Source of the DNA: Candidatus Pacearchaeota archaeon
GTDB taxonomy: Archaea; Nanobdellota; Nanobdellia; Pacearchaeales; GW2011-AR1
Assembly: GCA_049511795.1 (NCBI GenBank)
Contig: JBEKXS010000001.1
Coordinates: forward strand, 58,514 to 122,513
DNA length: 64,000 nt
Direction of reading: 5' to 3'
Positions 35,614 to 44,617 of this stretch are shown in pieces. The notes under the pieces were generated by a model. The model saw only the letters and a list, made by a program, of their open reading frames with translations. It did no database searches and was not told the origin of the DNA. Position 1 is the stretch's first letter, and each line of letters opens with the position of its first letter. The translations under genes and the position numbers were made by a program.

Positions 35614-36123
35614 ATGAGTTCCTCAATAGAAATACCTTCTTGGGATGATTATTTTATGACCTTAGTCTATATGGTGGCTTCCAGAAGCAAAGATTGGAGA
35701 ACACATATGGGCGCTGTTATTGTCGATCAAAATCATTTTATTGTGTCTACAGGGTATAATAGTTTCCCAAGGCATATTGATGATAAAAAAGCTGAAAGAC
35801 AGGAAAAGAATGAGAAAAAATATTGGATATTACATGCTGAAGAAAATGCAATACTCAATTCCGGGAGACTAACCTTAGAAGGATGCACATTGTATACTAA
35901 TGCTATTCCTTGCAGTGATAAATGTGCAATACAAATTGTCCAAAAAAGACCAAAAGAAGTTGTTGTTGATAAAAAATGGCCTACAAATACCGCCGAATGG
36001 ACTGAAAGGAACAAAAGAACATTGGAAATGTTTGCAGAAGCAGAAATAGGTTTTAGGCAGCTTGACACAAATTATATTCAAGTCGTCAGATTCAACGACG
36101 GTATTGTTTTACCCTTAAAATAA
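35614..36123 (+). CDS. dCMP deaminase (cytidine/deoxycytidylate deaminase family)
   Basis: HAEENAI and PCSDKCA zinc-binding motifs. Confidence 0.65.
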   Translation: MSSSIEIPSWDDYFMTLVYMVASRSKDWRTHMGAVIVDQNHFIVSTGYNSFPRHIDDKKAERQEKNEKKYWILHAEENAILNSGRLTLEGCTLYTNAIPCSDKCAIQIVQKRPKEVVVDKKWPTNTAEWTERNKRTLEMFAEAEIGFRQLDTNYIQVVRFNDGIVLPLK

Positions 36124-36177
36124 TCTTTTTATCACAATCATATTTATAAAACGAGGCGCCATAAAATTAAATAAAAA

Positions 36178-37266
36178 ATGGTGAAGCAGTATCTTGAGCA
36201 TTCTAGAGAAATATTAACTTCCCCTAAAAGTTTGTTCAAGGGCGGAAGCAAGGAGGTCCCTATTATTTCTTTATTCGGCTACCAGAATGAATATGACCTT
36301 CGCGATGGTTTTCCTCTTCTTACGACAAAAAAAATGGCAATAATTTCATTGATTCATGAGCTTCTATGGTTTATGAGCGGAGACACAAATATCAAATATC
36401 TTGTCGACAATAAAGTTCCAATATGGACAAGGGATGCATTTAATTTCAACTTGGAAGCAATGGCAAGAGAAGGAGTTTTTCCAGGACAACTGGCAAAATA
36501 TTCCCCCGATTGGCAAAAAGCATTGTCTGAATATGAACAAAGAGTAAGAGAAGATTCAGATTTTGCAAAGAGGTGGGGAAATTTAGGACCTGTATATGGT
36601 CAGCAATGGAGAAATTGGAAATCTGTTGGCGAAGATGGGAAAGTAGTTGTTGTAGATCAGCTTGGAAAACTTATTGAAAGTTTAGAAAAAAAGCCAACAA
36701 GCAAAAAAATAATTATGACTGCCTGGAATCCAGGGGAATTGTCAAGAATGGCTCTTGAACCTTGCCATATGTTTGTTCAGGTTGATTCTGACTCAAATGT
36801 AATGGACTTATTTATGCATCAGAGAAGCTGTGACCAATTTTTGGGAGTTCCATTTAATATTGCAAGCTATGCAATGTTTACTAAAGTTATTGCGCAACAA
36901 GCAGGATTTGAGACAAGAAGATTTATTCATAGTTTTGGAAGTGCGCATTTTTACTGTGGAACAGGCGAAAGAGGAAGATGGTATGGAGAACATCTTGATG
37001 AATTCAGGCAAAAAGTTGGACAGTGTATGTTTCCAGATGATTATAATGAAGCGCGTTTCTGGTTGGAAAGAAATCTCCCTCCTGAAGCAGAAGGGCAAGA
37101 AGGTTATGATCATGTTACTGCAATTATAGAACAACTTGCTAGACCAACAAGACCATTACCAAAAATGACAATTGCAGACAAGCCTTTTTATGAATTAAAA
37201 AGAGAAGATTTCAAATTAGAAAGTTATGACCCCTGGCCAAAAATAGAAAGAAAAATGGCTGTATAA
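36178..37266 (+). CDS. thyA: Thymidylate synthase ThyA (long form with insertions)
   Basis: LLWFMSGDTN, GPVYGQQWRNW, LEPCHMFVQ (catalytic Cys), MHQRSCDQFLGVPFNIASYA. Confidence 0.8.
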   Translation: MVKQYLEHSREILTSPKSLFKGGSKEVPIISLFGYQNEYDLRDGFPLLTTKKMAIISLIHELLWFMSGDTNIKYLVDNKVPIWTRDAFNFNLEAMAREGVFPGQLAKYSPDWQKALSEYEQRVREDSDFAKRWGNLGPVYGQQWRNWKSVGEDGKVVVVDQLGKLIESLEKKPTSKKIIMTAWNPGELSRMALEPCHMFVQVDSDSNVMDLFMHQRSCDQFLGVPFNIASYAMFTKVIAQQAGFETRRFIHSFGSAHFYCGTGERGRWYGEHLDEFRQKVGQCMFPDDYNEARFWLERNLPPEAEGQEGYDHVTAIIEQLARPTRPLPKMTIADKPFYELKREDFKLESYDPWPKIERKMAV

Positions 37267-37267
37267 A

Positions 37268-37762
37268 ATGAAAGACCCTGAATTGATAATAATCGTTGCT
37301 GCATCTTTGAATGATGTAATTGGAAAGGATGGCAATACTCCTTGGGATATTCCTGAAGACAGGCAACATTTCAAAAATCTTACTTTAAATCATCCTGTGA
37401 TAATGGGAAGAAAAACTTATGAGTCAATTCCTCCAAGATTCAGGCCTCTTCCGCAAAGAAAGAACATCGTGCTTTCATCTTCTCTTGAGGAAATTCCAGA
37501 AATTTATATTGCAAGAAGCATGAAAGAAGCAATAGAACTTGTAGATGGGCAGGATGCATATGTAATGGGCGGTGCACAAGTTTATAGAGAATTTTTTAAT
37601 ATTACATCAAGGATAGAATTAACAAGAGTGGAAAGGAAATACGAAGGGGACGCCTTTTTTCCAAGAATTGATCTTACAGTGTGGAAAAAAGTTGGAAAAG
37701 ATGAAGATGGAGTAAGCAGGACAGGCATACCTTATTCTTTTCAGAGATATGAAAGAGCATAG
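37268..37762 (+). CDS. folA: Dihydrofolate reductase
   Basis: IIVAASLNDVIGKDGNTPWDIPEDRQHFKNLTLNHPVIMGRKTYESIP is a canonical DHFR N-terminus. Overlaps the thyA stop. Confidence 0.75.
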   Translation: MKDPELIIIVAASLNDVIGKDGNTPWDIPEDRQHFKNLTLNHPVIMGRKTYESIPPRFRPLPQRKNIVLSSSLEEIPEIYIARSMKEAIELVDGQDAYVMGGAQVYREFFNITSRIELTRVERKYEGDAFFPRIDLTVWKKVGKDEDGVSRTGIPYSFQRYERA

Positions 37763-37808
37763 AAGATAGTAAGACAAATTTTATAAATCCAGATAATTCT
37801 TAGAGTTT

Positions 37809-38147
37809 ATGAAAACAGCAAAAGTCAAAACAAAGGGTGTTACAGAGCTGTCAGGAAATGAATTTCCTGATTTCACAAAAAAAGGCACTGTTCTTGTTGA
37901 TTTTTTTGCAGACTGGTGCATGCCATGCCTCATGATGGCTCCTGTAATGGAAGAACTTTCTGAAAAATTCACAGGAAAGATAAAATTCGCAAAAATAAAT
38001 GTTGATGAGAACCAGCAGATTTCACACAAATTCAAGGTCATGTCAATACCAAATTTCATTCTTTTCAAGGACGGCAAGCCAATTGACCAGTTTATAGGCT
38101 CAATGCCGATGGAAGATTTCGAGGAAAAGCTGAAAAGGCATCTGTAA
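37809..38147 (+). CDS. trx: Thioredoxin
   Basis: WCMPC active site in FFADWCMPCLMMAP. 112 aa. Confidence 0.7.
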   Translation: MKTAKVKTKGVTELSGNEFPDFTKKGTVLVDFFADWCMPCLMMAPVMEELSEKFTGKIKFAKINVDENQQISHKFKVMSIPNFILFKDGKPIDQFIGSMPMEDFEEKLKRHL

Positions 38148-38198: not shown

Positions 38199-38273
38199 GG
38201 CTCCGTAGCTCAGCATGGATAGAGCACCGGACTTTTAATCCGGGTGTCGTGGGTTCAAATCCCATCGGGGCCA
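38199..38273 (+). tRNA. tRNA-Lys (UUU)
   Basis: Perfect cloverleaf: acceptor GGCTCCG/CGGGGCC, D-stem GCTC/GAGC, anticodon arm CCGGA-CTTTTAA-TCCGG, T-arm GTGGG-TTCAAAT-CCCAT, discriminator A. Confidence 0.8.
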
Positions 38274-39410: not shown

Positions 39411-39520
39411 GGGAGTTTTTTCATGATTTTTGGCAAATTCCTCTAAATCGCGACGGGACAGGGTTCTGTAAAGTTATCGGTTGGTAGAAAAGGTTAAAAG
39501 TTGGGATTCTTTAGAATTTT

Positions 39521-39703
39521 ATGGTTACGCCGAGCAGGGTTAGGATGAACAAATTAAGGCATAAGCACGGAATGATAGCCAAAGAAAAACAGGCAGAAAA
39601 CGAAGAAAATAAGTCTTGGAGAGAAAGAAGTTCTAAATCAATATCTCAAGAAGAACATCAAGAAAGACTAAATAAACTGAAAGAAATTGGATTATTAAAA
39701 TGA
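39521..39703 (+). CDS. Small highly charged protein, translationally coupled (ATGA) to the downstream gene
   Basis: 60 aa, K/E/R-rich. Its stop overlaps the start of 39700..40338. Confidence 0.3.
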   Translation: MVTPSRVRMNKLRHKHGMIAKEKQAENEENKSWRERSSKSISQEEHQERLNKLKEIGLLK

Positions 39704-40338
39704 GTGAAAGTAAAGCAAAGGCAAAACTGAACGGAGATGTAATAAAACTACCCCTTAGTTTTTCTCAAGGCAGTATTAGGGTAGCAGACAATAAAGGAAA
39801 TCACTTTCAAAAACCAACACAGCAAATTATGGATAAGGAATTGTATATTGAATGGATGATAACTAATGATGAAATTAAATTGTTGTCAAAACTTATCCCC
39901 AAGAAAAATATAGGAGATTTGATAAAAGTGTTACAAAGAATAAATAAGTTTGCAGAAGCAACGAAATATTCTAAAAGAGAATCAGATAGAGGAGAAAAAG
40001 TTATTGCTGAATTTGAGGGCTTTAAGATATATCATTATACAGATGATTTTAATTCTTTTGAGAAAGTTCTTGGTTCTACATTAAAAGTAAGATTAACATT
40101 TAAGTTAGGAGATTATGGTGTTACATCCCATCCTCATATGTATGTTCTTGTCCCATTCAATTTTAAGACATTAAAAATAAAAAATATCTCTGGGAATGTT
40201 AAGATAGGAGAACCTCTTGGAAAAAAGTGTTTTGCAGAACTAAATTTGACAGAAGAAGAACTTAAAGAGATAATATTAACACTTGCTCACGCTTCAAGTA
40301 ATCATAGAAATGATTTGATTAAAGTTCTTGAATCCTGA
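39700..40338 (+). CDS. Hypothetical protein, candidate restriction endonuclease partner of the adjacent methyltransferase
   Basis: Convergent with, and overlapping by 20 nt, the 3' end of the MTase gene. No clear catalytic motif. Confidence 0.25.
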   Translation: MSESKAKAKLNGDVIKLPLSFSQGSIRVADNKGNHFQKPTQQIMDKELYIEWMITNDEIKLLSKLIPKKNIGDLIKVLQRINKFAEATKYSKRESDRGEKVIAEFEGFKIYHYTDDFNSFEKVLGSTLKVRLTFKLGDYGVTSHPHMYVLVPFNFKTLKIKNISGNVKIGEPLGKKCFAELNLTEEELKEIILTLAHASSNHRNDLIKVLES

Positions 40339-41455
40339 AATCCAAAACATCATTTTTCTTTATTGACTTACTGCCTACTCTATGGGTTATGTTTCTAAAA
40401 TGTTCTAAATTCTTATTAAGGGCTTTACAAACAGATTCTTTTATCTTTTTATTGCTATTGAACTCATCTTTAAATTTAAAGACAAAAAACATATCATTCA
40501 AAACATCTTCTTTGACATTAATTAACCCTGATTTTCCCACGCTTACATTACCCACTCTTGTAACTGCAAGAGCATAATCCTTAACATCTTTTTCTTTTGG
40601 TATTTCTTGGTGTTGTAAAATGTTAGCCCCTGAAATATTGTTTTTTGTATAATCTCTTTGATAATGGGCTTTTTCATTAGATAAGAAATCAAATAAAGGT
40701 TTTCCTTCTTGATGGTTTTTTATTTTGTATAAAAATGTTTTTGGGATTAATTCTTCTGTTAGTAATAGATTTTTGTCTAAAACTTCTTTAACATTCTGTC
40801 CATCTTCATAAAGGATTATTATTTTATCTCTGAATTTATCTATATTTGTAAAGATAGCAAAACAGCAAGGTATAGGTTCTTCAACCATATTCTTACTATT
40901 CTGATAAATTATTATTGTGCTAAATCTGTTTATGATTTCTTTCTTAACTTCTTTATTTTTCTTTGCTATGAAAAAGGAGATAGGCAAAACAAAAGCTATA
41001 CTTGAATTTTCATCTTTAAGATGTTTTATAGATTTCAAAATAAAAGCATTTTCTATTTGAACTTTCTCTTTTTTCTTGAAGGATTCTGTTAAATAATCTT
41101 CATTATTCTTATACTTCTTTGGGAAAAAATAGCTGTCTTTGACATTATATTTTGTAAATGGTGGATTTCCTATAATCAAATCAAACTTTTTATCTAAATC
41201 AAACAAAAAGAAATCACAGGGCTTACTTGTCAGATTCTCATCTATTTCACACTCTTGAATATTGTTAAAACCCTGCTCTTGCATTCCCTTTACAAAGTTT
41301 CTTGTCCCTGCTGATGGTTCTAAAACATTTATATCTCTATTGTAATCTTTATATTCTAAAAGAAGTCTAATTACTCTATCAACAACATTTCTTTTAGTGA
41401 AATATTGTCCCCAAACAAATTTCTTATCGCCCATATCTATTTTATGCTTTGACAT
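40319..41455 (-). CDS. N6-adenine DNA methyltransferase (gamma-class, TaqI-like order: motif I then IGNPPF) with C-terminal target-recognition domain
   Basis: Motif I VLEPSAGTRNF. Motif IV IGNPPF. About 180-aa C-terminal variable domain. The annotated start lies 3 nt from the transposase stop, so the real start may be the internal Met at about 41434. Confidence 0.6.
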   Translation of the reverse strand: MSKHKIDMGDKKFVWGQYFTKRNVVDRVIRLLLEYKDYNRDINVLEPSAGTRNFVKGMQEQGFNNIQECEIDENLTSKPCDFFLFDLDKKFDLIIGNPPFTKYNVKDSYFFPKKYKNNEDYLTESFKKKEKVQIENAFILKSIKHLKDENSSIAFVLPISFFIAKKNKEVKKEIINRFSTIIIYQNSKNMVEEPIPCCFAIFTNIDKFRDKIIILYEDGQNVKEVLDKNLLLTEELIPKTFLYKIKNHQEGKPLFDFLSNEKAHYQRDYTKNNISGANILQHQEIPKEKDVKDYALAVTRVGNVSVGKSGLINVKEDVLNDMFFVFKFKDEFNSNKKIKESVCKALNKNLEHFRNITHRVGSKSIKKNDVLDFRIQEL

Positions 41456-42505
41456 TTTTTAACTCTTTTGACTTGCTAAGTATATCAAGTCAAGCCATTT
41501 ATTTTTCCCAAGATTAAGATTAACCCCTGCTTGTTCAATAGGAGTTTTATTTATGCCTTGATGGATTCTTATAAAATTGTAATAAACAACAAACAAAGAC
41601 AAAATAGCTTCTGCACTTTCAGGGCTTTTGAAATTTCTCATAACCTTGATTCTTGCCCTGATAGTACCTTGTATTCTTTCTATTATGTTATTTCTTCTGT
41701 CTTCACTTGCTTTTAATCTTGTATAAACTTCTCTATCTAATTTTCTGTTTCTTGAACCCCAAACTTTTCTATATGCTTTCTTATAAGCAAAAGCTGAATC
41801 TGTGAATAATGATAATGGTTTATTCTGTGCTTTGAAGAAAAGCATTTTAGCACTCTTTGTATCTCTTTTTGTTGAGTAATGAGAAGAAACCAAAACTCTT
41901 GTTTCCTTATCTATCATATCCCAAAAATAATGCTGTTCATTCTTACATTTAACAAAAATCTCATCTGCGTGATAAATTCTTGAAAGATTTAAGTCAAATT
42001 TTCTCTGAAAATCTTTTAACAATATAGCATATCTTCTTATCCAGTTTAGAACAGCTTGATGGCTTACTTGATAATCTGAAAACTGGTTAAAATGCTCTTT
42101 GACTTTTCTTAAACTCAACCCATTCATATAAAGAGAAACGCACTGGGTTATTACTTCTCTTTTGTGCTTTGTTTTGAAGAAACCATCATCAACCACAAAA
42201 CATTCAGAACAGGAATTACATTTCCATCTTTGCTTTTTTGTGGTATGGTTGAATCTGAAACCCCACTTAATAACTTCTTCAGATTTACAATAAGGACAAA
42301 CCTTCGGCTTGATAACCGAAACTAATTTATAGTTCTGTGTCTTCTGATTTTCGTTATTCATTTTGCGATGGGTAACCTGCCCTTCGGGGCAGTCATATTT
42401 ATTTGTATAAATATTAGATTAGTAAATAACTAATCTATTTAAATGTTTCTATGAGAAGTAATTAGGCACTACAATTCACTATTATTAGGCACTACAACAA
42501 GGGGA
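41400..42505 (-). mobile_element. IS6-family insertion sequence. Exact ends not resolved. Region bounded by the MTase start and GGCACTACAA repeats.
   Basis: Transposase ORF. Upstream GC-rich UUCG hairpin (42377..42392). IS26-IR-like GGCACTACAA copies at 42465..42474 and 42488..42497. Confidence 0.35.
41459..42361 (-). CDS. tnp: IS6-family DDE transposase with N-terminal zinc-ribbon
   Basis: CPYC...CNSCSEC zinc finger. YHADEIFVK, DKETRVLVSSHYSTKRDTKSAKMLF, FTDSAFAYKKAYRKV and RNFKSPESAEAILSLFVVYYNFIR blocks parallel the IS26 Tnp26 blocks WHMDETYVK, DSRGRTVDFYLSSRRNSKAAYRFL, NTDKAPAY, GFKSMKTAYATIKGIEVMRAL. Confidence 0.7.
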   Translation of the reverse strand: MNNENQKTQNYKLVSVIKPKVCPYCKSEEVIKWGFRFNHTTKKQRWKCNSCSECFVVDDGFFKTKHKREVITQCVSLYMNGLSLRKVKEHFNQFSDYQVSHQAVLNWIRRYAILLKDFQRKFDLNLSRIYHADEIFVKCKNEQHYFWDMIDKETRVLVSSHYSTKRDTKSAKMLFFKAQNKPLSLFTDSAFAYKKAYRKVWGSRNRKLDREVYTRLKASEDRRNNIIERIQGTIRARIKVMRNFKSPESAEAILSLFVVYYNFIRIHQGINKTPIEQAGVNLNLGKNKWLDLIYLASQKS

Positions 42506-42696
42506 GAAAGTGTCATAAATATCTGTTCGGCAAAAATCTCGTCAGATTCTTTCCTTAATTTTTTATTAAGAAATTTATCAAGTTTTTTCTGATAGTTTGG
42601 AATATCTATGCCGTACTTTTTATCAAATTCATTAGTAAGTTCAATAATTTTTTCCCTCATTTCTACAACCTTCAAGTCATTTTCTTTCCAGTTCAT
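42469..42696 (-). pseudogene. Truncated hypothetical gene (75 aa) whose C-terminus is encoded by the GGCACTACAA repeats. Probable remnant of the partner of the upstream AbrB-like gene.
   Basis: Start overlaps the stop of the AbrB-like ORF (ATGA). The last 12 codons read through both repeat copies. Confidence 0.3.
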
Positions 42697-42851
42697 TTTT
42701 TCTTTTTCTCCTTTTCTGTTTTCCTGATTTTTACTTCAAGAATATCTCCAAGTTCCAAGCCCAATTTTTCTATTGTTTCTATTGGAATCGTAATTACTTT
42801 GGAACTACCCCCATCCCTGATTTTTGCGTCAAATTGGCTTTCAGTTTCCAT
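42696..42851 (-). CDS. AbrB/SpoVT-MazE-like small DNA-binding protein (antitoxin-like), 51 aa
   Basis: Hand-translated: METESQFDAKIRDGGSSKVITIPIETIEKLGLELGDILEVKIRKTEKEKKK. Swapped-hairpin AbrB-type pattern (GSSKVITIP...LGL..GD.L). Confidence 0.4.
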
Positions 42852-42955
42852 AATATATCTTAAACCTTTTTTAACAAGATTAAATATACATTTGACTATA
42901 AAAAACTTGTGTTTTTACAAAAGATTTAAAAGTAGTCATTTACTAACCTTTCTAT

Positions 42956-43216
42956 ATGGCAAAGGCAATACCAAAGTGGGTACAAGAAAGATTGTCAAGA
43001 CTTTGGAAAAAATATGAGGGGAAAGACATAACATATGAAAATATAGAAAAAACTTTGACTATGGATGATAAAAATACAATAAATGCTTTTTTGAATGAAC
43101 TCAAAACAGCAGGATGGATAGAAGTTAAATCAAATGAATCAGACGCAAGAAAGAAAATATATATTTTAAAATCTCCAAGCGTGGTTATGTTGGAAATAAA
43201 AAAGGAAGAAAAATGA
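42956..43216 (+). CDS. Winged-helix DNA-binding protein
   Basis: 86 aa. ...INAFLNELKTAGWIEVK... recognition helix plus wing. Translationally coupled (ATGA) to the downstream gene. Confidence 0.4.
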   Translation: MAKAIPKWVQERLSRLWKKYEGKDITYENIEKTLTMDDKNTINAFLNELKTAGWIEVKSNESDARKKIYILKSPSVVMLEIKKEEK

Positions 43217-44331
43217 TAATACACGATGTTATTACTGAGGCAGTTGATAAAGATTCAAGACTGGTTTTGAAAAGAATAAAAACTTCTGAAGGAGATTTTT
43301 CAAACAGAAAACTTGCTATTACAAACTTTATGTATAATTGTGAAAGGGACAGGATGAAATATGGACAACCATTATTTAATGGAATTTTCCAAACGTGTCA
43401 TATCAGATTTGATAGGATTCTTAATGACTGGGATTATCTTGGGCTTGAAAACTCCAAAAAACACGCACAGAAAAACAATCGTATATTTTTGCCTTACAAA
43501 CAAAGAAATGAAGAACAGCTATCCCAAATGAAATGGGAAAATTCTGTTAGCGATTTCAATACTATGGTTGGAAAGGTTGATAATGTTCCATTTGTCCTGC
43601 CTCTTTATGCAACCCTTAATGATTGGAAAAAATACAGGGCAAACGCTATTTCAATATTAAACCAAAATCAAACATTAATTCCTATAATCTCATCAAAGCA
43701 TAATGTTTCACATTTTCCAACAATAATAAAATATGAAAAAGGAAAAGATAATCTTATAGGGATAAATTCTTATGAATTGAGTGACATAACAGAAAGAACA
43801 AACCTTTCATATTTGAGAGCAATAAACAGCGATACAAAAACAGGTGATAAAACTTCTTTATTTGTAAATTTCAATTATCCAAGAATCCTTACAAGATTAT
43901 CAAATATCGCTGGTTCTTTTGCATTTACTTGCTTTGCAGGAGATATTTTTTCTGAAAGAGCAAGTTTCCCACAAGGAATGAAAAGAGAATCTGTTAATCT
44001 TATGTTTGACAGAAAGCCAGAAGAATATTCTTTTTATGATTCTAAAGAAAAGAAATTCAATAAATCCTTGCCTCAGAAAGAATGGTATGGTGTTGATTTA
44101 ACCAAAAGTTCTATGGCTAACGTTTCAGTTCTTCACGGATTAAGTGGTTATCAAGTAATAAAATGTTTAAGTCACATTAAACAACAAGATGATTTAGATT
44201 TAATTAATGCTTTAATATTGAATCAGCAAGATGTTTTGAAATTTATGAAAAATTATACTGGTTGGAGTGTATTCTTAGACAGAATGGTTATCCCATCTTC
44301 ACAAACGCAACAAACCCTCTTAAAATTCTAA
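43213..44331 (+). CDS. Hypothetical protein (372 aa), no recognisable domain
   Basis: Good coding structure. No motif matched from memory. Confidence 0.35.
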   Translation: MIIHDVITEAVDKDSRLVLKRIKTSEGDFSNRKLAITNFMYNCERDRMKYGQPLFNGIFQTCHIRFDRILNDWDYLGLENSKKHAQKNNRIFLPYKQRNEEQLSQMKWENSVSDFNTMVGKVDNVPFVLPLYATLNDWKKYRANAISILNQNQTLIPIISSKHNVSHFPTIIKYEKGKDNLIGINSYELSDITERTNLSYLRAINSDTKTGDKTSLFVNFNYPRILTRLSNIAGSFAFTCFAGDIFSERASFPQGMKRESVNLMFDRKPEEYSFYDSKEKKFNKSLPQKEWYGVDLTKSSMANVSVLHGLSGYQVIKCLSHIKQQDDLDLINALILNQQDVLKFMKNYTGWSVFLDRMVIPSSQTQQTLLKF

Positions 44332-44617
44332 TAGTCACGTGACACAAGGAAAAAACATTAAGGGGTTGCTTGTTCTTTCCAAGCAAGTAAATCCCTTAAT
44401 GCCTTCTTAAAAATATTAATTTTCCATTCCTTTTAAACTTTTATTCAATTTTCACCAACCGAAGATTTGACAGAACCACGGGACAGAAACATTTTTAAAC
44501 CAAATTTTGATATCTTTTATTATTGATGAGTTGTCAAAACTCTTCTGGAAAGTGCCTAAAACCCCCTGCCAGAAAAATTAAATTCACCGTCGGTAACTGT
44601 CTAAAACTGCCAAAAAT

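Follow-up and report, generated by a model that had tools for sequence, protein, structure and literature searches.

A probable PabI-like restriction–modification system carried by a transposon in a Pacearchaeota archaeon, with a divergent HALFPIPE glycosylase homolog as its restriction component

A stretch of 64,000 nucleotides from the genome of a Candidatus Pacearchaeota archaeon (contig JBEKXS010000001.1 of assembly GCA_049511795.1, positions 58,514 to 122,513; hereafter the window) contains a transposon of 5,016 bp (39462–44477) whose cargo includes a pair of restriction–modification (R-M) genes. Three open reading frames (ORFs) of 60, 212 and 378 aa make up this part of the element, and the longest encodes a DNA methyltransferase (MTase) (Table 1). 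The stop codon of the 60-aa ORF overlaps the start of the 212-aa ORF by 4 nt (ATGA), whereas the 212-aa and 378-aa genes converge and share the last 20 nt of their 3′ ends (40319–40338). These ORFs and both overlaps had been reported in a preliminary description made from the sequence alone, and the ORF list of the window reproduces its coordinates exactly. Chance ORFs are ruled out by homologs, which form 94 clusters for the 212-aa protein and number more than 500 for the MTase; the 60-aa ORF is found at eight loci and in four database proteins. The genes rpoH and rpoB lie directly downstream, and the window is archaeal.

The preliminary description read the 212-aa and 378-aa genes as a convergent Type II R-M pair, and related loci support this reading with the 212-aa protein as the restriction component (R) and the MTase as its partner (M). 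Loci around homologs were fetched from 25 genome and 80 metagenome records (locus labels, L, are our own), their ORFs were clustered, and linkage was counted over the 39 loci whose flanks were long enough on either side. The pairing would be doubtful if homologs of the 212-aa protein were never found beside MTases; an MTase is in fact present at 38 of the 39 loci, and at 36 of them it belongs to the same gamma-class family as that of the window. Two loci (L075 and L085) carry a beta-class MTase together with a different gamma-like MTase on the same strand (family G19, with the motifs GSYYTP and GGGCGAF as read by eye), and one locus lacks any MTase. In about 80 unrelated loci, the gene for the 212-aa protein lies next to that of the gamma MTase and converges with it; the 3′ ends of R and M overlap by 4–65 nt in about 60, and the remaining neighbours are unrelated from locus to locus. 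Pairwise identities of R and M are correlated (Mantel r 0.64, a value reached by 0 of 2000 permutations), with R diverging faster than M (mean identity 0.49 vs 0.63). Conserved linkage, overlapping ends, unrelated flanks and co-evolution of R and M together mark a mobile R-M unit.

In the 378-aa protein, the motifs VLEPSAGTRNF (motif I, residues 44–54) and IGNPPF (motif IV, residues 95–100) occur in the order of gamma-class enzymes, as previously described, and are followed by about 200 C-terminal residues, the size of a target recognition domain (TRD). The protein passes the Pfam Eco57I cutoff (PF07669, 41.3 bits vs 25.3) and matches the MTase_II model of PADLOC (E 1.1e-19), and its best match in the PDB is M.TaqI (E 6.7e-5). 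It shares with the M.TaqI/Eco57I enzymes (PF07669) the succession of motif I, motif IV (NPPF) and a C-terminal TRD, but M.TaqI aligns with it over the catalytic half only. For the TRD, the aligned region is the Methylase_S-type TRD of another MTase, one encoded next to a canonical R.PabI homolog (P0254); the alignment of the window MTase with that enzyme covers 362 aa including the TRD at 23% identity (E 2e-8). Among 65 full-length homologs, EPSxGTxNF (motif I) and GNPPF (motif IV) are invariant. Many columns of the C-terminal 200 residues are conserved at ≥90%, which suggests that the family may have one specificity in common. The Arg of motif I in the window protein (position 52, mostly Gly in homologs) is a tolerated variant, because Arg or Lys is found there in nine other homologs. 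Only five residues of the window MTase differ from the ≥90% consensus; three of these are conservative changes (V/I, M/L or L/I), and another is M190 for W. An alternative start at M8 (41434) would give a protein of 371 aa. Judged by its sequence, the 378-aa protein is an intact gamma-class N6-adenine DNA MTase with a TRD.

The 212-aa protein had been proposed as the nuclease of the pair, with the reservation that no PD-(D/E)xK motif could be verified in it. The reservation was correct and the proposed nuclease type was not, since the fold differs: a fold prediction, suggested in order to find a PD-(D/E)xK or HNH core, returned a HALFPIPE fold. The 94 homolog clusters (at 90% identity) contain proteins of about 210 aa that are 38–78% identical. 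The AlphaFold2 model, made with 62 homolog clusters, has a predicted local distance difference test score (pLDDT) of 91.2 and a predicted template modelling score of 0.86. Foldseek agrees on the HALFPIPE fold for this model (E 1.6e-12), and only two enzymes are found at E ≤ 1e-5. Evidence independent of the structure model comes from the clade profile, which matches R.PabI over its full length (E 3.7e-7). In an exhaustive search of 1.84 billion representative sequences, the hidden Markov model of the clade reaches proteins of the Pfam family RE_R_Pab1 at E 1e-6 to 8e-4. Alignment of the clade with six PF09522-positive proteins by hhalign gives a probability of 99.6% (E 8.8e-24, 195 columns), and identity between the clade and the PabI family is about 20%. 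Because fold match, profile and profile–profile evidence concur, the 212-aa protein is a homolog of the HALFPIPE restriction DNA glycosylases and not a PD-(D/E)xK or HNH nuclease. The kinship is absent from current annotation: nothing meaningful is found for the protein in Pfam, NCBIfam or PHROGs, PADLOC gives a weak match to a REase_II model of 226 positions (E 0.001), and the NCBI label for clade proteins is "hypothetical".

An intermediate HALFPIPE relative (P0244, 228 aa) matches the clade profile at E 1.8e-18 and has no PF09522 match. It has Tyr at the position of R.PabI Y68 (WVERMISY) but lacks the C-terminal His/Asp motif, and it may bridge the clade and canonical PabI.

Members of the clade come from DPANN archaea and Patescibacteria in groundwater, sediment and lake metagenomes. 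Some of the hosts are bacteria, as indicated by the Patescibacteria records and by a neighbouring gene for RecG helicase (NCBIfam, 830 bits), which flanks the system at L074:75-2261 and has homologs in L005, L022 and L077. The clade thus crosses the boundary between archaea and bacteria among ultrasmall organisms. It was not found in phage records, plasmid records, IMG/VR contigs or BFVD structures, and no paper among the top-ranked literature results linked PabI or HALFPIPE to DPANN lineages. According to a 2023 review, restriction glycosylases are confined to Helicobacter and Campylobacter (Campylobacterales) and a few hyperthermophilic archaea (PMC10273834).

Related loci often contain further components. 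A beta-class DPPY MTase of about 212 aa (Pfam N6_N4_Mtase, E 2e-33) is present in 31 of the 39 loci. A protein of about 200 aa that matches a Type II restriction endonuclease (REase) model of PADLOC (E 1.8e-10) is encoded directly upstream of the HALFPIPE gene in 21 loci; loci with this protein include L003, L009, L015–L017, L019, L023, L024, L087, L091–L096, L098, L100 and L101, and in L087 its gene lies directly downstream rather than upstream. The REase, a family with no solved relative by sequence, accompanies the beta MTase wherever the flanks are long enough to check. Such loci are probably two R-M systems fused in one cluster, often under a single gene of the XRE-type helix-turn-helix (HTH) family, which heads the operon in 28 loci (Pfam HTH_3, E 5e-16). 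A tblastn search of the window returned neither the beta-class MTase nor the ~200-aa REase nor the XRE gene.

The 60-aa protein is the product of a real conserved gene. Its family (G10) is conserved in length and sequence at its eight loci, and the four further homologs in the protein database are 70–94% identical. The gene always comes first inside the terminal repeat and at all eight loci overlaps the next gene by 4–14 nt, this being the HALFPIPE gene in six and the beta MTase gene in two. The preliminary description likened it to the controller (C) proteins of Type II systems. The likeness holds for position and coupling: as with the genes of C.PvuII and C.Esp1396I, a small gene heads the operon and, through the ATGA overlap, lies directly upstream of R and is co-expressed and co-translated with it. 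It does not hold for the fold. The 60-aa protein has no match in Pfam, NCBIfam or PADLOC and no useful match in PHROGs, and AlphaFold2 predicts one long and one short helix (residues 4–37 and 43–56, pLDDT 87) and no HTH of the XRE type that defines C proteins. The gene is also dispensable, because three sister loci (L036, L037 and L029) retain the same conserved 60-bp leader and precisely lack the ORF. For these two reasons, no predicted HTH and absence from otherwise identical elements, the 60-aa protein falls outside the C-protein family, and any part that it plays in regulation is conjecture. It could still be a controller by function, an analogue that delays or limits R expression after entry into a new cell. 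Other clade members do have true C-like genes of the XRE type, and a classic C-type XRE-HTH gene occupies the place of the 60-aa gene in 28 related loci. Other variants have a charged protein of similar size (family G6, 56 aa; the hhalign match to G10 is weak, at a probability of 9% and P 0.004). Together with the invariable position of the 60-aa gene at the head of R or beta MTase, these observations make such a function possible, but it is on balance doubtful given the two helices that form neither an HTH nor a ribbon-helix-helix, the sister elements that do without the gene, and the upstream leader. No conserved palindromic operator is evident there in a five-sequence alignment, and the window has only a 5-bp AT-rich inverted repeat.

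The active site of R.PabI can be compared with the clade residue by residue, using numbering set from the Y68F and K154A crystal mutants in PDB alignments, functional roles from the literature (PMC10273834) and conservation counted over 90 clade members. The equivalents of the essential R32 and E63 (R27 and E51 in the window protein) are invariant. That of the catalytic H211 (H202) is conserved in 87 of 90 members, and the window protein has Asp (D205) at the position of D214, with H-x-x-D spacing identical to that of R.PabI. The scaffold and base pocket thus appear conserved in sequence, with a catalytic or recognition constellation that appears remodelled. Glycosylase chemistry is the most likely activity of the 212-aa protein by analogy with its family.

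We consider it likely that the locus is a transposon-borne base-excision R-M system of the PabI type. In such a system, the 378-aa MTase would methylate adenine at N6 in a short target sequence, and the 212-aa protein, probably as a homodimer with a half-pipe beta-sheet, would bind unmethylated copies of that target. Abasic sites on both strands would then be turned into breaks, either by a weak intrinsic apurinic/apyrimidinic (AP) lyase activity or by AP endonucleases of the host. The overlapping convergent 3′ ends and the coupled upstream ORF probably tune the ratio of R to M, and the system would probably defend its host and stabilize the transposon through post-segregational killing. We infer the adenine target, the dimerization, the addiction function and the regulation by convergent transcription by extension from the family and from what is generally known of R-M systems.

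Several observations weigh against this reading. The Pfam model of the PabI family (PF09522, RE_R_Pab1) has no match at E ≤ 0.1 in the window protein and none at E ≤ 1 in four clade members. The catalytic Tyr is missing: the position of R.PabI Y68, at which canonical PabI members retain Tyr, is Asn in 90 of 90 clade members (N56 in the window), and Y68F R.PabI is unable to excise the base (PMC10273834). Y134 is replaced by Phe in 89 of 90 (F117), and K154 by an invariant Gly (G137). The equivalent of D214 varies, being Asp in 65 of 90 members and Ala or Ser in 18. The Lys responsible for AP-lyase activity (K73 of R.PabI, K71 of R.CcoLI) is not kept in the clade, the aligned position being variable (K60 in the window). 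Conversely, the clade has invariant residues that R.PabI lacks (D30, G33, N34, H35, P39, E58 and K135) and the invariant motifs D-x-x-G-N-H and EWMITNxE. Because of these private residues, the chemistry or the excised base may differ from that of R.PabI. A second, beta-class MTase occurs in most related loci and is missing from the window. Word usage is only suggestive of the target. All characterized PabI enzymes recognize GTAC (PMC10273834), and family precedent is what points to GTAC as the putative target here. The observed/expected ratio of GTAC is 0.71 in the window and 0.59 in the pooled loci; that of GATC is lower, at 0.37 and 0.53, and GATC is the most under-represented tetranucleotide of the window (z -9.5). 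Since both words are depleted, avoidance does not discriminate between them as targets; the depletion of GATC suggests that a system specific for GATC exerts, or once exerted, pressure on the sequence.

If these departures are given their full weight, the DPANN/Patescibacteria clade could form a distinct second branch of base-excision restriction enzymes, with an Asn-based site in place of Tyr, a target or base unlike GTAC or adenine, dispersal by an autonomous IS6/IS1-like transposon and a new helical, non-HTH mini-protein as regulator; we regard this combination as tentative and rather unlikely. Unlikely too, although the fold would be kept and the protein would still be the toxic partner of the MTase, is an action that does not resemble that of R.PabI: the protein might excise another base, work chiefly by lyase or nuclease activity, or do no more than bind unmethylated sites and distort them. 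The replaced Tyr residues, the variable D214 equivalent, five of the new invariant residues (D30, N34, H35, E58 and K135) and the failure of PF09522 all fit such an action. They are set against aligned equivalents of R32, E63, H211 and, in the window, D214, at unchanged H-x-x-D spacing, and against the strict MTase linkage, which implies DNA damage that is sensitive to methylation. Asn, moreover, can position the catalytic water in other monofunctional glycosylases.

Decay of the R gene, which would leave an inactive remnant beside a functional orphan MTase on the transposon and no working R-M system, is improbable. R genes of the PabI family do often decay in Helicobacter (PMC10273834), and the window lacks the beta-class MTase of 31 of the 39 related loci. 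However, at least seven other loci likewise combine R with the gamma MTase alone, the window R is not truncated and has all the residues that the 90 homologs share without exception, its MTase is close to consensus, and identical genes recur in 7–10 assemblies. An ordinary phosphodiesterase of the PD-(D/E)xK or HNH type can be dismissed as extremely improbable, because the D-x-x-G-N-H...N pattern, superficially HNH-like when the sequence is read by itself, was rejected as an HNH site by the fold search and the HALFPIPE fold contradicts such an enzyme.

The PabI-like system is one of several cargoes of the transposon (Table 1), an element that the preliminary description had overlooked. Homology at the DNA level with L002, L036 and L037 begins at 39462 and stops near 44477, and the left repeat GGTTCTGTAAAGTTATCGGTTGG is the left boundary of homology in these loci and in L029. 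Sister elements are flanked by 9-bp duplications of their own (CTATGGGTT in L036, CTAGAATAG in L037 and GTTCTTTAG in L038), so that four independent insertions are on record. In L037, both repeat ends carry the same variant sequence and thus co-vary. The transposase matches Pfam DDE_Tnp_IS240 (71 bits vs 27) and, at the borderline, the IS6 model NF033587 of NCBIfam (125.9 bits vs a cutoff of 125), and its N-terminal zinc ribbon is of the IS1/IS1595 type (33 bits). The terminal inverted repeats start with GG, as in the IS6 family. The duplication is 9 bp in four of four cases, whereas 8 bp is the norm of the IS6 family and 9 bp is typical of IS1; for this reason the element is called only IS6-like. 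It encodes its own transposase and is autonomous. It also has the lowest G+C content of any 5-kb stretch in the window (0.297 vs 0.353).

Table 1. Features of the transposon and of the R-M locus within it, in window coordinates.
Feature	Position	Strand	Remarks
Left 9-bp target-site duplication, ACGGGACAG	39453..39461	.	Identical 9-mer abuts both inverted repeats
Left terminal inverted repeat, GGTTCTGTAAAGTTATCGGTTGG	39462..39484	+	Repeat search pairs 39462–39490 with 44449–44477
Conserved leader, from inverted repeat to first gene	39485..39520	+	83–90% identical across loci
60-aa helical basic/acidic protein, family G10	39521..39703	+	Translationally coupled to next gene
212-aa HALFPIPE-fold protein, divergent homolog of R.PabI-family restriction DNA glycosylases (R gene)	39700..40338	+	
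378-aa gamma-class N6-adenine DNA MTase (predicted) with C-terminal TRD (M gene)	40319..41455	-	Pfam Eco57I, M.TaqI, PADLOC
300-aa DDE transposase with N-terminal zinc ribbon, IS6-family-like	41459..42361	-	ORF ends 3 nt before MTase start
Overlapping genes for 52-aa AbrB/MazE-like protein (42693–42851), then 75-aa protein (42469–42696)	42469..42851	-	Pfam MazE_antitoxin, 26.7 bits; phrog_21593
Overlapping genes for 86-aa winged-helix protein (42956–43216) and 372-aa protein (43213–44331)	42956..44331	+	Weak winged-HTH matches; optional cargo
Stem-loop after last gene of the element	44356..44401	+	Minimum free energy -23.5 kcal/mol, z -4.4; conserved in L002, L036, L037
Right terminal inverted repeat (reverse complement GGTTCTGTCAAATCTTCGGTTGG)	44455..44477	-	19/23 identical to left repeat
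Right 9-bp target-site duplication, ACGGGACAG	44478..44486	.	Perfect direct repeat of left copy

The rest of the cargo is shared in part with sister elements. The genes for the 52-aa and 75-aa proteins are conserved as a pair in L002, L025, L036 and L037 and resemble a toxin–antitoxin system. The pair encoding the 86-aa and 372-aa proteins is conserved in L002, L025 and L036, and the shorter element of L037 lacks an intact 372-aa ORF; the 372-aa protein has no significant match in Pfam, NCBIfam, PADLOC, PHROGs or the PDB. The stem-loop, located within the element close to its right end, varies less from one element to another than the coding regions do, and Rfam has no match inside the element, the stem-loop included. 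At the other end, identity in the leader (Table 1) compares with about 72% for coding regions of the same loci, and an A-rich/TTAAAA stretch about 25 nt before the ATG could be an archaeal B recognition element and TATA box.

The element is inserted between an 85-aa gene and rpoH. None of the 23 contigs that encode the exact RpoH protein, all from the same population, has an empty site; every contig that spans the site has the element. Contigs of several independent assemblies of the population of the window (L107–L113) break inside the transposon, within the MTase, 75-aa or 372-aa gene; repeat copies of the element, or differences between strains, could explain such breaks. Upstream of the insertion (35614–38147) lie genes that read as dCMP deaminase-like and ThyA-like, followed by genes for dihydrofolate reductase and thioredoxin, the latter two identified from Pfam matches of called genes in L106, and then a tRNA gene (38199–38273, Rfam 69 bits).

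Carriage of R-M genes between repeats has a precedent in units with imperfect inverted repeats and 8-bp duplications that lack a transposase and are possibly non-autonomous (Furuta et al., 2010, PMC2853133). The window element resembles these units in the inverted repeats that bound the R-M genes and in the short target duplication, and it differs in its IS6-like DDE transposase, larger cargo and 9-bp duplications.

The closest known relatives are the PabI systems, namely R.PabI/M.PabI of Pyrococcus abyssi, R.HpyAXII and R.CcoLI. Fold, sequence homology, protein size (~210–230 aa), the R32, E63, H211 and D214 equivalents and behaviour as a mobile unit of low G+C are common to both, and so is the partnership with a gamma-class N6-adenine MTase that has a C-terminal TRD. 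In archaeal PabI systems, R lies tail to tail with a gamma-type MTase that bears a C-terminal TRD (PMC4615327), and the gamma MTase of the window is likewise adjacent and tail to tail. At the locus of a canonical archaeal R.PabI homolog, the convergent MTase (Eco57I/N6_Mtase/Methylase_S) is of the same type as that of the window. In contrast, the low identity, the escape from PF09522, the substitutions at Y68, Y134 and the AP-lyase Lys, the private motifs and the DPANN and Patescibacteria hosts set the clade apart, as do the second, beta-class MTase that most members have (and the window lacks) and, here, carriage by a transposon. A canonical archaeal locus (L114:473-3277) encodes a pair of RE_R_Pab1 paralogs in tandem (227 and 241 aa), followed by a convergent MTase of 459 aa, an arrangement that hints at a heterodimeric HALFPIPE enzyme.

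The category of system is already known, and its core biology is predictable from R.PabI. What is new is the HALFPIPE clade itself, which is divergent and lacks annotation, together with its changed catalytic residue, host phyla not known for such systems before, the extra components that often accompany it and carriage by a transposon. To our knowledge, all known restriction enzymes except the restriction glycosylases act by cutting the phosphodiester backbone. A large sister clade (about 100 loci) in mesophilic ultrasmall archaea and bacteria would therefore widen the range of base-excision immunity. Its members are natural variants at the catalytic Tyr that could serve mechanistic study, and they offer candidates for new specificities with metal-independent chemistry. 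Mobile elements of DPANN archaea are poorly known, and the element described here illustrates with unusual directness how an R-M system travels as the cargo of a transposon.

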